This document shows positions 60,001 to 64,000 of a DNA stretch of 64,000 nucleotides, one piece after another. The stretch is from the NCBI RefSeq assembly GCF_048403405.1, contig NZ_CP183129.1, one strand, 5' to 3'. Made by a program: the position numbers. The DNA comes from Escherichia coli (GTDB lineage Bacteria; Pseudomonadota; Gammaproteobacteria; Enterobacterales; Enterobacteriaceae). How positions within the stretch are numbered: position 1 is the first letter of the stretch; each line of letters begins with the position of its first letter.

Positions 60001-63000
60001 GGCAATGTCACCACGATTATTATGGGGAGCAGTACTGCACACACTGCCAGACCGGGCGCTTCAGTGAGGACGGGGAGCAGAATGAACGGTATAAAAACGG
60101 GGCTGGGGATCACGCCGGGTGAGCACATTATCAGTGCCGACTCTGCGCTCAGCAGAAATATCCGGCATTGTTTCTGCCTTTCCTGTCATGGCCGGTTGAT
60201 TCTGCAGACAGATGCTCAGGGGGCGTGGTTTGAGCATGATTTACATGCCCTGAGTGAGCAACAGAAGGGTAAGCGTGCAGCAAGAACCGTATTGACGGGG
60301 ATGTGTTATTCAGTCGGCAGTGCTACGCGCCAGGGGAGCAGTTCGCCGACCCGGTTTATCGGCCAGTCGGCTATGACGTCAAGGACATAGCGGAGGTAGC
60401 TTTCTGGCTCCACTCCGTTCAGTTTGCACGTCCCGATCAGGCTGTACAGCAGCGCTCCCCGCTCTCCTCCATGATCCGAACCGAAGAACAGGTAGTTTTT
60501 GCGGCCCAGACTGACCATCCGCAACGCATTTTCAGCGATGTTATTGTCCGCCTCAGCCCAGCCATCATCTGCATAGTACGTCAGCGCCGGCCACTGGTTC
60601 AGGGCGTATGCGAACGCTTTCGCCAGTTCTGAGTGTCGCGACAGGGTTTTCATCTTTTCACGCAGCCAGCTTTCCAGGGATTTCAGCAGCGGTTTCGTTT
60701 TCAACTGACGTTCGGCAAGGCGCTGCTCCGCCGTCATTCCCCTTATCTCTGCCTCGATGGCGTACAGTTCGCCGATCCGTTTCAGCGCTTCCTCCGTCAG
60801 GGCTGACGGGGTGCGAACGTGCACATCGTGGATTTTACGGCGGGCGTGAGCCCAACAGGCGGCTTCCGTTATCCGGCCATCCCGGTACAGCTCGTTGAAC
60901 CCGGCGTATGCATCCGCCTGCAGTACACCACTGAACCCCGCAAGATGGGTCTGCGGATGGATGCCTTTTCTGTCCGGGCTGTAAGCGAACCACACCGCCG
61001 GCGCCAGCGTTGACCCGGCGTTACGGTCGTCACGAACGCAGGTCCATAACCGCCCGGTCTTCGTTTTCTTATTGCCTGGCAACAGCACCGGGACAGGCGT
61101 GTCATCAGCATGGAGCTTACCGTCAGTCAGCACATAGCCATGAAGCGCCTCTTCCAGCGGAGACAGCTGCCGGCAGCATGCATCCACCCAGCCCGACAGC
61201 AGTGAACGGCTCAGCTCCACACCTTGCCGGCCGTATATTTCTGACTGGCGATACAGCGGGGTGTGCTCTGCATACTTCGAGGTCAGCACGCGGGCCAGCA
61301 GCCCCGGTCCGGCGATACCCCGCTCGATGGGCCGCGAAGGTGCAGGTGCCTGCACGATGGCATCGCACTGAGTACAGGCATGTTTTTCCCGTACCGTCCG
61401 GATAACCCGGAAGGCGCTACGCATCAACTCCAGCTGTTCGGCGATATCCTCGCCCAGATAGCTCAGTGAACCGCCGCAGTTCGGGCAGCACGGCGCCGCA
61501 GGCAACAGTCGCTTTTCGTCACGGGGTAGTGATTCAGGGAACGGCTTACGGGTGCGGGTCTGACGCAACGGACGCTGTACTGCCGGGTCATACACCCTAC
61601 CAGTCAGCGTATCGCTCTCTTTCTGAAGCCGGTTCAGATCGGCTTCCATTTGTGCGATACGGCGGGAGACTTTTTCGGAACGACTGCCGAAGTTCATCCG
61701 GCGGAGTTTATCCAGCTGCGCCTGCAGATGGTCTATTTCGCGCTCCCGGTTGCTCAGCTTTTCCTGCAGGGCGTGGATCAGCGCTTCCTGTTCGGCCAGG
61801 CGCTGTTTCAGCAGGAAAATGTCGTCAGAAGAGATGTCGTTCATACATCGTGTATTTTTCGCCGGGCATGGACCCAGCACGCAACTTCTGTCTGTGCACC
61901 ACCTTCACGTTTGGCACTGAACAGCCGATCGTAACCGCTGAATGCATCCGCCTGCAGGATACCCCGGAAGGGACGAAGGTGTTGTACCGGATGTTTTCCC
62001 TGCCTGTCTGGTGAGTAGGCGAACCAGACCGCCGGTGGCTCTGATGAGCCCGCATTCCGGTCATCCCGGACATACGTCCAGATGCGTCCTGTTTTTGCCT
62101 TTTTTCTGCCCGGTGTCAGCACTTTTACCGGTGTGTCGTCAGTGTGAACCTTGCGGGTGTTCATCACGTAACGGTACAGGGCATCATTCAGCGGAGTCAT
62201 TAACTGGCAGCACGCGTCAACCCAGTTGGAGATTAATGCACGGCTCAGTTCGGCACCCTGTCGGGCAAAGATTTCACTCTGACGATACAGTGGCAGGTGT
62301 TCGCAGTATTTTCCCGTTAACACGCGGGCAAGTAATCCGGAGTCCGCGATGCCGCGCGCTATCGGGCGGGACGGCGCTGGCGCTTCAACTATACAGTCAC
62401 ATTTTGTACAGGCTTTTTTTACCCGAACAGTGCGGATCACTTTCAGGGCGCTACTCACCAGTTCCAGCTGCTCAGCACTGACTTCACCCAGATAATCCAG
62501 CTCACTGCCACACTCCGGGCAACAACTTTCTTCAGGCTCCAGGCGGTGTATTTCACGGGGAAGATGTGCTGGTAACGGACGACGATGACGTGACTGTCGC
62601 AACTGGCGGGGAACCTGCGGGTCATCCTCACGCCCACTGTAACGATCGCTTTCCTGTTCGCGTTGTTTCAGTTGGGCCTCAGCCTGTTCAACCTCACGCT
62701 GCAGTTTTTCAGAACGGGTACCGAACAGCATCCGGCGCAGTTTTTCTATCTGGGCCCTCAGATATTCTATTTCCCGCTCCTCCTCTTCGATCTTTTCTTC
62801 GGCACGTGCCAGTGCAGAGCGCAGGAAGGCCTCCGTCTCTTCAACCAGACTCAGTTGCAGATCTCTCTGACGGAGGGCTTCAGCCTGCTCAGAGAGCAGC
62901 CTTTCCAGCTCAGTGATACGAATGAGGTATTTCCGACTCATGACCGTTTTTATAATCCGGCCATGACATTTTTACAACATTGTCAGTGCGTTAAGACGGG

Positions 63001-64000
63001 ATGTTTTTGGCTGACGCCAGTCTAGCTTATCGAGGAGCATTGCCAGCTGCGAGCGGGTAATGGATACCTTACCGTCACGCACCGCAGGCCAGATAAACAG
63101 GCCTTCCTCCAGGCGTTTGGTGAACAGGCACAGACCATCAGCATCAGCCCAGAGGATTTTAATCATGTCACTCCGTCGGCCACGGAAGATGAACAGGTGA
63201 CCGGAGAAGGGGTTCTCATCCAGCACATGTTGTACCTGTTCACCCAGACCGTTGAAGGATTTACGCATATCAGTAACGCCGGCAACCAGCGAGATTCGAG
63301 TGTCTGATGGGAGCGAGATCATCGCCCCCTCCCGGTCAGTTCACGGATCAACACCGTGAGCAGCTCTGGTGAAGGATTTTCCAGCGTCATGTTACCGTGG
63401 CGGAACTCAACTTTACAGGAACTGGCACTGACTGTGCTTTGTGAAGGAGTGGATAAAAGCGGAGTAAGAGCCGCCATAGGCTCTTTCTGCTCATCAGGCG
63501 TTATCTCAACAGGTAATAATTCAACGCCAGCGTCAGAAGAGGTTGTTACCGGAAGACGCCGCGATATACGCCCTTCGTTCTGCCAGAGCCTGAGCCATTT
63601 GAACAGGAGGTTATCATTGATATCGTGTTCCCTGGCAATACGGGCAACAGAGGCTCCTAGTTGTGAAGCCAGTTTAACCATTTGAAGTTTAAACTCATTT
63701 GAAAATGTTCTGCGGGGTTCTGCGGATAATATTTTCTGTTCCATAACAGGTGTCCACTAGTTGATGAAAAGGTGGGCACCTACGTTACCAATACTGGCTT
63801 AATGGCTACATACGGCGGTCAGTTTACGCTTACCATGTATCTGGCGAGTGAAGCTTTATGTCGTGTTCTGGCGTGTCCTGTGTTAGTTAGAACACGCCAT
63901 CGATGGTCAGCAGGTTCATATTGCACCAGAGCGGATACAGCGTGGTGTTATGTCAGGGCTGCGCTGTTTACGTGAACACGTGGCGTACGGCCCCGCTTCC

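Follow-up and report, generated by a model that had tools for sequence, protein, structure and literature searches.

Comparable rearrangements among IS66-family elements

The locus analyzed here can be compared with the deletion scars and hybrid remnants that IS elements leave in pathogenicity islands, and among described cases with the IS66-flanked 270-kb deletion of Agrobacterium pAt15955, in which homologous recombination between identical copies left one normal IS66 behind (PMC6778807). There, as we propose for the present locus, two co-oriented IS66-family copies were reduced to one structure and the intervening DNA was lost, but the join described below is non-homologous and its product is an abnormal element with 1.7 tnpC genes. 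A second comparison comes from Escherichia coli O157:H7 (NZ_CP038349.1), where an IS682-like element carries an ISEc8 inside its tnpA. Again, two dissimilar members of the IS66 family stand directly side by side in one orientation, but the O157:H7 junction coincides with a genuine IS terminus and the genes run in reversed order, with ISEc8 tnpB-tnpC preceding the truncated tnpA-tnpB-tnpC, whereas both breakpoints of our locus are internal to the elements. The O157:H7 arrangement, matching 83% of our query in two pieces, had the appearance of a second chimera until the nested ISEc8 was recognized.

The present locus lies in a 64,000-nucleotide stretch of the E. coli contig NZ_CP183129.1 (assembly GCF_048403405.1), hereafter the window. 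RefSeq gives the locus as a “tnpC, incomplete” (pseudogene) followed by a “tnpC”; a search of a literature library found no description of this junction or of a tnpC hairpin. Element names (IS682, ISEc22, and ISEc8) are used here as they stand in the RefSeq annotation.

A hybrid element with two tnpC genes

With boundaries refined to run from inverted repeat to inverted repeat, the element comprises the following features.

60269..63833, minus strand: whole hybrid IS66-family element, 3,565 bp, from an IS682-type left inverted repeat to an ISEc22-type right inverted repeat
63804..63833, minus strand: left inverted repeat, IS682 type (GTAAGCGTAAACTGACCGCCGTATGTAGCC), matching at 30/30 positions that of L002, an intact IS682 with flanking duplications
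63319..63744, minus strand: tnpA, 141 aa, IS682 type, intact (NCBIfam IS66-like accessory protein TnpA, 81 bits against a cutoff of 74; Pfam HTH_Tnp_1)
62972..63322, minus strand: tnpB, 116 aa, IS682 type, intact, in ATGA overlap with tnpA (NCBIfam IS66_TnpB, 114 bits; Pfam TnpB_IS66)
61841..62941, minus strand: tnpC-1, IS682 type, 366 codons plus a stop made by the junction (Pfam LZ_Tnp_IS66, zf-IS66, and DDE_Tnp_IS66 positions 1-163 of 284 only)
60306..61844, minus strand: tnpC-2, 512 aa, ISEc22/ISEc8 group, full length, with T134I and Y269C (all four IS66 TnpC Pfam domains complete)
60269..60298, plus strand: right inverted repeat, ISEc22 type (GTAAGCGTGCAGCAAGAACCGTATTGACGG, read inward on the plus strand), a 30/30 match to the right repeat of an intact element (L003)

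The ORF list and the raw sequence agree on four minus-strand genes (tnpA, tnpB, a cut tnpC-1, and a full tnpC-2) and, together with the NCBIfam and Pfam matches, bear out the preliminary description of a tnpC that ends after codon 366, its TGA overlapping the ATG of a full tnpC. The gene order is that of the IS66 family, with tnpA and tnpB overlapping at ATGA and tnpC following 30 nt further on, but tnpC is present twice and its first copy is cut: tnpC-1 is missing the final 121 positions of the DDE_Tnp_IS66 profile along with the entire C-terminal domain (Pfam), and its product shares 96% amino acid identity with residues 1-366 of the 537-aa IS682 TnpC. Where a canonical autonomous IS66 encodes one complete cognate TnpC, the complete TnpC-2 of this locus stems from an element other than the one that supplied TnpA, TnpB, and the left end. 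Both ends of the hybrid begin GTAAGCGT (canonical IS66 ends begin GTAAGCG), and the two terminal repeats match each other at 17/30 positions, against 22-23/30 within each parent. The flanks differ (GATACATG versus CCTTCTGT) and form no 8-bp target-site duplication, whereas both intact parents are bounded by perfect 8-bp duplications. A self-blast returned no second copy of the hybrid in the window.

Parent elements

The earlier view of the locus as a hybrid of two unlike IS66-family elements is supported, its halves matching different elements on either side of one non-homologous junction. The left 1.99 kb has 97.2% nucleotide identity to elements annotated IS682, an intact copy of which measures 2,532 bp and is flanked by the duplication TCTTTCTC. 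Shared with IS682 (97% nucleotide, 96% amino acid identity) are the left repeat, tnpA, tnpB, the tnpB-tnpC spacer with its hairpin, and tnpC codons 1-366. The identity is confined to the first ~1,990 bp, the hybrid lacking the last ~545 bp (tnpC codons 367-537 and the right repeat) as well as the target duplication, so that this part is a 5' fragment of IS682 and not a full-length member.

The right 1.57 kb (~1,576 bp) has 99.7% nucleotide identity to an intact 2,442-bp element of the ISEc22/ISEc8 group that is flanked by the duplication GTTCTGAT, and 94% and 92% identity to elements annotated ISEc22 and ISEc8, respectively. The nearest intact relative is the 2,442-bp element of plasmid pSCU-387-1 (NZ_CP051689.1). 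Here too membership is partial: the match covers the last ~1,576 bp only, comprising tnpC and the right repeat, and the hybrid is without the first ~866 bp of the relative (left repeat, tnpA, tnpB, and the spacer hairpin). TnpC-2 is identical to the TnpC of the intact plasmid copy at 510/512 residues, the two substitutions being T134I and Y269C. The latter sits in a GRLWT(Y)VRDD motif in which tyrosine was found in 36/36 other copies examined and cysteine in hybrid copies only. No solved structure was found to be related to TnpC by sequence.

The junction

Alignment of the hybrid with an intact IS682 and two intact ISEc22-like elements placed the junction at three base pairs.

61843..61845, minus strand: junction, a 3-bp microhomology (TAT) common to both parents

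Sequence from 61846 upward is that of IS682 and sequence from 61842 downward is ISEc22-like; IS682 reads ...GATGTAT|ACATC, the ISEc22-like element ...GGCTTAT|GAACG, and the hybrid GATGTATGAACG. On the minus strand (CAC GAT GTA TGA, with the ATG at 61844-61842), the stop of tnpC-1 and the start of tnpC-2 overlap as ATGA. Codon 366 of the IS682 tnpC is thereby joined to codon 1 of the other tnpC, although the homologous position in TnpC-2 is codon 341, and the two genes share 65% nucleotide and 63% amino acid identity. A crossover between homologs would lie at equivalent positions within a common stretch, whereas here the parents have only TAT in common at the junction. Read from this alignment, the recombination was illegitimate, with 3 bp of microhomology and 341 codons out of register, and not a homologous exchange between IS66 copies.

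The ATGA overlap calls for no special cause: once a break falls at this ATG, the GA behind it will complete a TGA in one of three frames read from upstream, so that such an overlap is expected about one time in three. An endpoint exactly at the tnpC-2 start codon would itself be an unlikely outcome of a random deletion and counts against the explanation favored below; its position at the start codon is a post hoc observation on a single event.

Flanks and island setting

The hybrid is bounded by the following features.

60082..60268, plus strand: 5' part of a DUF7828/zinc-ribbon gene (DUF7828/Zn_ribbon_11), cut by the ISEc22-type end; RefSeq “putative zinc ribbon protein, incomplete”
63834..64000, minus strand: left flank, a degenerate IS4-like transposase remnant that holds the IS682 end and runs past the window edge; annotated “transposase domain-containing protein,” frameshifted, with an internal stop

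Truncation of the zinc-ribbon gene by the second element, as originally proposed, can now be placed at the ISEc22-type right end, position 60269; the intact gene, seen at the empty sites of two other islands, encodes 141 aa. The right flank is 96% identical to these empty-site islands, in which the left flank has no match. The IS4-like remnant has 75% nucleotide identity to an IS4 copy at 8442-8883 of the window. An IS4/Tn5 remnant in the empty-site island TUM20902 was considered as its ancestor and rejected, there being no homology. Three more IS66-family elements lie within 20 kb in the window. The hybrid marks the seam of two island modules, a nan-like sialic-acid cluster and a CP4-type module.

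Distribution among E. coli genomes

A 240-bp query spanning the central junction (61741-61980 of the window) matched 658 of 5,426 complete E. coli genomes (~12%), CFT073 and ATCC 25922 among them. The left flank junction was present in 672 of these 5,426 genomes and the right in 700, leaving 14 to 42 genomes with a flank junction but without the central one. Hybrid copies are 99.6-100% identical among the 658 genomes. In a sample spaced evenly along the ranking of matches, the top six all carried the hybrid at one locus, five of them covering both flanks fully and the sixth (H221) ending 77 bases short on the zinc-ribbon side. A mobile element would be expected at several sites or in several copies, and this single chromosomal context (six of six sampled copies) goes with a wide vertical spread.

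Several other matches were set aside. The sole match to the junction in the plasmid database (CP088753.1) is a 22-kb record, rich in errors and frameshifts, with a chromosomal nan-gene context, and is not evidence of mobility. A count of 1,032 genomes covering at least 80% of a 3.7-kb query is inflated, probably by one intact IS66 element aligning to both tnpC parts; the median number of matching places per genome is 5. In strain RUT3575, an ISEc23 near intact zinc-ribbon genes represents an unrelated event.

Candidate precursors were sought in the same genomes. A synthetic query joining the intact zinc-ribbon gene to the ISEc22 left end, as predicted for the left side of an undamaged ISEc22-like insertion, matched 0 of 5,426 genomes at a coverage of at least 80%, and flank-only matches on the IS682 side were absent from 40 sampled matches of the left-junction search.

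A predicted hairpin at the tnpC start codon

The spacer upstream of tnpC-1 holds one further predicted feature.

62938..62966, minus strand: predicted RNA hairpin (UCAUGGCCG / CGGUCAUGA) enclosing the tnpC-1 AUG (computed fold; covariation among 13 IS682/ISEc23-type spacers)

A conserved predicted hairpin houses the tnpC start codons of IS66-family elements, and the fusion removed that of tnpC-2. On a transcript of the operon, should there be one, translation of TnpC-2 would start by termination-reinitiation at the AUGA overlap and not under its native start-codon hairpin.

Origin of the hybrid

We consider it very probable that a single illegitimate recombination or deletion, at the level of microhomology, linked 1.99 kb from the 5' side of an IS682 to 1.57 kb from the 3' side of an ISEc22/ISEc8-group element, and that the resulting locus is fixed and non-mobile. 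In the most economical history, an IS682 would have inserted into the IS4-like remnant beside the sialic-acid (nan-like) gene cluster and an ISEc22-like element into the DUF7828/zinc-ribbon gene of the CP4-type island module, and a break-and-join between the two co-oriented elements would then have removed the intervening DNA and fused the two island modules. We infer the order of these three steps (two insertions, then the break-and-join) rather than demonstrate it, because the left junction of the ISEc22-like element is absent from the 5,426 genomes and the 40 sampled matches include no flank-only case.

Of the two routes offered in the preliminary description, recombination between unlike copies stands, in an illegitimate and not a homologous form, and nested insertion followed by deletion becomes a possible but unlikely alternative. 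In that alternative, the ISEc22-like element would first have landed in the 3' portion of tnpC in IS682, with codon 366 then brought up to the start of the ISEc22 tnpC by an internal deletion. An adjacent deletion driven by transposase and starting at the ISEc22 right end would have taken away the remainder of IS682 and the neighboring DNA as far as the zinc-ribbon gene. IS66-family elements do enter each other, as the ISEc8 within tnpA of the O157:H7 element illustrates, and the three neighboring IS66-family elements within 20 kb are consistent with such an event. An adjacent deletion beginning exactly at an IS end would, moreover, account for the missing target duplication, and the absence of the predicted intact-ISEc22 junction in the zinc-ribbon gene also fits. 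This scheme nevertheless requires three events, as many as two independent insertions and a break-and-join, and the junction search and sampled copies contained no nested intermediate. It is without direct support, since the right end of the second element abuts the zinc-ribbon gene and no IS682 sequence is left to the right of that end. The present sequence is compatible with nested and with independent insertions alike.

A different kind of alternative concerns not the origin of the hybrid but its retention. The hybrid might be kept as a coupled source of ISEc22-type transposase freed of the start-codon hairpin, or TnpC-1, with a DNA-binding N terminus and an incomplete catalytic domain, might inhibit IS682-type transposition; we regard this as improbable. 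In its favor, the four ORFs are all open, termination-reinitiation could occur at the AUGA overlap, only the last 3 nt of the native hairpin over the tnpC-2 AUG survive, and 658 genomes hold the structure at 99.6-100% identity. N-terminal transposase fragments are, in addition, inhibitors in IS1, Tn5, and IS911. Against this, recent common descent of the island explains the near-identity just as well, Y269C alters a residue that does not vary in 36/36 other copies, the hybrid has mismatched ends and is confined to a single locus, and neighboring IS remnants in the island are plainly decaying. More improbable still is a stronger version, in which the break at the hairpin foot would have made an unregulated, translationally coupled cassette (IS682 TnpA and TnpB, the TnpC-1 fragment, and a full ISEc22-type TnpC) that ExPEC lineages retained to modulate IS66-family transposition in trans, either by supplying transposase or by dominant-negative inhibition. 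The still full-length TnpA, TnpB, and TnpC-2 ORFs and the 99.6-100% identity of the copies fit a recent origin as well as they fit selection to keep the locus.

We favor the hybrid as an immobile product of illegitimate joining. It is probably unable to transpose, given its mismatched ends, a TnpC-1 without the C-terminal 43% of the catalytic DDE_Tnp_IS66 profile, and a TnpC-2 change at an otherwise invariant tyrosine; it is probably also without function.

Homologous recombination between two IS66 copies would be suggested by the RecA-type deletions that IS66 copies mediate in Agrobacterium (PMC6778807) and by the common family of the parents, but the alignment with intact parents rules it out: the out-of-register join of codon 366 to codon 1, the low identity of the tnpC genes around 3 shared base pairs, and a product holding one and two-thirds tnpC genes instead of one leave it practically no probability. 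A collapsed or mis-joined repeat, which had been named as the finding that would overturn the observation and which the abundance of IS66-family repeats makes conceivable, is for practical purposes refuted by the recurrence of the identical junction in 658 complete genomes, which many laboratories produced on many platforms, including at least five separate ATCC 25922 assemblies and CFT073, with consistent flanks in the sampled copies.

Significance

In itself the locus matters little: it is a real but ordinary inherited IS scar at an island-module boundary, adding to the decayed mobile-element junctions of the mosaic, pheV-associated island that uropathogenic E. coli carry. A more interesting lead than the hybrid is the hairpin that covers the tnpC start codon and covaries across IS66-family elements. 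For annotators, the locus is a warning that its second tnpC, intact as it looks, does not belong to an autonomous IS, and the unique junction sequence is usable as a stable lineage and island marker.

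Layout of the hybrid element

By its open reading frames, raw sequence and profile searches, the hybrid consists of a tnpA, a tnpB and a tnpC cut after codon 366, followed by an intact tnpC, just as the preliminary description had it; the sole correction concerns the boundaries of the element, which are 60269-63833 (-). The ORF list and raw sequence place it in a single continuous block on the minus strand, running from 63833 to 60269:

63833 (-), block start: IS66-type terminal repeat, beginning GTAAGCGTAAACTG (raw sequence)
63744-63319 (-): tnpA, 141 aa (ORF list and NCBIfam)
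63322-62972 (-): tnpB, 116 aa, with an ATGA overlap with tnpA (ORF list and NCBIfam)
Between tnpB and tnpC-1 (-): 30-nt spacer (raw sequence)
62941-61841 (-): tnpC-1, the cut gene, with a stop after codon 366 (ORF list)
61844 (ATG) to 60306 (-): tnpC-2, the complete gene, 512 codons (ORF list)
60269, block end, 37 nt past tnpC-2: second IS66-type terminal repeat (raw sequence)

The join reads CAC GAT GTA TGA AC, and the tnpC-1 stop and tnpC-2 ATG do overlap, as ATGA. In the profile searches, TnpA and TnpB scored above the curated NCBIfam cut-offs; TnpC-1 had the leucine zipper, the zinc finger and only positions 1-163 of 284 of DDE_Tnp_IS66, lacking the last 121 profile positions and the entire C-terminal domain; and all four domains of TnpC-2 were complete. 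The RefSeq annotation of the locus already gives "tnpC, incomplete, missing C-terminus" and then "tnpC."

Two parents and an illegitimate join

The left part of the hybrid (63833 to about 61846) had 97.2% identity to elements named IS682 in RefSeq, and TnpC-1 matched the first 366 of the 537 residues of the IS682 transposase at 96% identity. An intact IS682 of 2,532 bp on an EDL933 plasmid shares the left repeat at 30/30 positions and lies between copies of the 8-bp duplication TCTTTCTC. Over the right part (about 61842 to 60269), identity was 99.7% to an intact element of 2,442 bp that occurs on several E. coli plasmids, carries a tnpA, tnpB and tnpC of its own and has the duplication GTTCTGAT; because identity over this part was 94% to the RefSeq-named ISEc22 and 92% to ISEc8, we refer to this parent as ISEc22/ISEc8-group. 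The two tnpC genes, previously noted as diverged, share 63% protein and 65% DNA identity.

The junction was placed by aligning the chimera with its intact parents. Before and after it, IS682 reads ...CACGATGTAT and ACATCAGC, the ISEc22-like element ...ACGGGCTTAT and GAACGACATC, and the chimera ...CACGATGTATGAACGACATC. The only bases common to both parents there are TAT (61843-61845), and the crossover therefore lies within them. To judge by these sequences, the join is illegitimate, at the level of microhomology. Homologous exchange between IS66 copies was rejected: IS682 codon 366 is joined to codon 1 of tnpC-2, the homologous TnpC-2 position is codon 341, and 3 bp are shared. A transposase cut was likewise rejected, since neither breakpoint is at an IS end. 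The TnpC-1 stop was made by the join itself, from the T of the shared TAT and the GA of the second tnpC-2 codon; given a break at the ATG, the ATGA overlap had about a one-in-three chance. The proposal of a chimera of two unlike IS66 elements, formed by deletion or recombination, is thus borne out by the parents and the single join, refined in that the event was illegitimate and not homologous.

Around the junction, parental similarity continues in patches beyond the TAT: GCCCGG(C/T)(G)AAAA(A)TAC (61846-61875 (-) against 3470-3498 of L003, the locus with the intact ISEc22-like element) lies 9-10 nt upstream and is out of register by 3 nt. In BLAST alignments, matches to ISEc8 reach past the junction (136-138 in the query) by about 13 nt, to position 123 on the IS682 side. 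This similarity may have helped mispairing, or may be due to chance.

Occurrence and apparent immobility

Among 5,426 complete E. coli genomes searched with 240-bp queries (coverage of at least 80%), the central junction was found in 658, the left end plus flank in 672 and the right end plus flank in 700. Junction carriers include CFT073 and at least five independent ATCC 25922 assemblies, which excludes the collapsed-repeat mis-assembly that had been named as the finding that would overturn the chimera. In 14 to 42 genomes, a left or right flank junction was present without the central junction at that coverage; in these, the hybrid may have been rearranged again or interrupted by secondary insertions. 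When the whole-locus ranking was sampled at even intervals, the first six entries all carried the chimera, five with both flanks fully covered and one 77 bases short on the zinc-ribbon side; the next entries were unrelated IS66 copies. The one match among 72,556 plasmid records is a chromosomal fragment: the record is 22 kb long, rich in frameshifts, and shows the nan-gene neighbourhood of this locus.

The 8 bp outside the two ends are unlike (GATACATG versus CCTTCTGT), and the terminal repeats match each other at 17 of 30 positions, compared with 22-23 of 30 within each parent. Given unlike flanks, mismatched repeats and one neighbourhood, the hybrid was therefore not delivered here by transposition as a unit, and these searches gave no sign of its later movement.

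Island context and history

The window is a pheV-associated island of an extra-intestinal E. coli; strain DA33137 is 100% identical to it over the hybrid. Window positions 1-8120 (glc operon) were 98.5% identical to DA33137, at an offset of 149 nt, and the remainder of the first 50 kb compared was 99.98% identical. The window thus comes from a strain other than DA33137 as regards the part before the IS4 copy, which suggests a recombination boundary at that place.

On its right the hybrid adjoins a CP4-type module with two DUF7828/zinc-ribbon genes, an inovirus-Gp2-family gene, hha and a YfjI-family gene. Where islands lack the insertion, this second zinc-ribbon gene forms an intact ORF of 141 aa and CCTTCTGT occurs once, exactly at the site of the present ISEc22-type end; the element of the second tnpC did truncate this gene, as first proposed. 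To the left (63834-64000 and beyond) are a degenerate IS4-like transposase remnant, 75% identical to a frameshifted IS4 copy at 8442-8883 (copy region 8403-9748), and then a nan-like sialic-acid cluster; the insertion of IS682 was into an older IS remnant. Since the right flank matches the empty-site islands (96% identity) and the left flank has no counterpart in those compared, the hybrid marks the seam where two island modules meet. IS66-family elements show strong clustering here: two more lie side by side at 43551-46161 and 46524-48840 (-), adjoining agn43. The DA33137 annotation gives one of them a frameshifted tnpC and a long tnpA of 678 bp, and assigns the other to the ISEc49 type.

The simplest history has two independent insertions, in which IS682 would have entered the IS4-like remnant and the ISEc22-like element the zinc-ribbon gene; a break-and-join between the co-oriented elements would then have removed the intervening DNA. 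A route of equal length starts from a nested insertion; an internal deletion and a transposase-mediated adjacent deletion, the latter running out from the right end of ISEc22, would have followed. Nesting does occur in the family: in O157:H7, ISEc8 lies inside the tnpA of an IS682-like element. The left junction predicted for an intact ISEc22-like insertion in the zinc-ribbon gene was absent from all 5,426 genomes, and none of the 40 entries sampled from the left-junction search gave a flank-only match. Nested and independent insertions are not separated by the sequence data.

A predicted hairpin at the tnpC start codon

A perfect 9-bp stem whose arms (AUAAGCCCG and CGGGCUUAU) enclose an 8-nt loop occurs in the intact ISEc22-like element, where its final bases are the AU of the tnpC AUG; the minimum free energy of the surrounding 81-nt stretch is -21.3 kcal/mol (z = -2.75). 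IS682 has another stem at the same place (UCAUGGCCG ... CGGUCAUGA), as do ISEc23, the second O157 element and ISEc49, each with a different one. Of six kinds of IS66-family element compared, five had a stem-loop overlapping or adjoining the start codon, with stem sequences that differ between elements; in the sixth, at window 45117, it is the hairpin loop that holds the AUG. The sites are:

Window 62938-62966 (-): TnpC-1 hairpin, kept in the hybrid
Window 48082-48121 (-) and about 45105-45130 (-)
L003: 3473-3498
L009 (another gathered locus): 2990-3015 and about 5134-5157
L010 (another gathered locus): about 4658-4681

Across 13 IS682/ISEc23-type spacers, phage-borne and prophage-borne copies included, 83% of cells were paired and two pairs showed compensatory changes (one position, e.g., has G-C, G-U and A-U). 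Covariation scored 0.145 versus 0.067 in shuffles (reached in 1 of 500), and pairing fell to 14-43% in slid controls. These sequence comparisons suggest that sequestration of the tnpC start codon is conserved in the IS66 family; no description of such a hairpin was found in the searchable literature. The deletion endpoint is at the 3' foot of the ISEc22-like hairpin, and tnpC-2 therefore lacks it; an influence of the hairpin on the break position is speculation.

Functional status and significance

The catalytic E of the IS66 family reportedly lies downstream of the CwAH-rR motif, where TnpC-1 breaks off. TnpC-2 is full length, and T134I and Y269C are its only differences from the mobile plasmid copy. 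The tyrosine, within GR(L/I)WTYVRDD, was shared by 36 of 36 other TnpC copies of the IS66 family among the loci collected, with Cys in the chimera copies only (codon 269, window 61038-61040 (-)); Y269C may have inactivated the protein at this locus specifically. None of the solved structures was related to TnpC by sequence. Transposition of IS66 is said to require all three ORFs, and the TnpA and TnpB of the hybrid come from a different element than its only complete TnpC.

That the locus was retained as a deregulated transposase or inhibitor cassette is highly improbable. Some residual expression may occur: the reading frames are open, and reinitiation could take place at the AUGA overlap. 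Recent shared descent explains retention at 99.6-100% identity as well as selection does. We consider the locus very probably an inert relic. The observation is confirmed, and its initial interpretation supported with refinements: the hybrid belongs to a familiar class, that of IS-IS fusion scars in mosaic islands, and is present in reference genomes.
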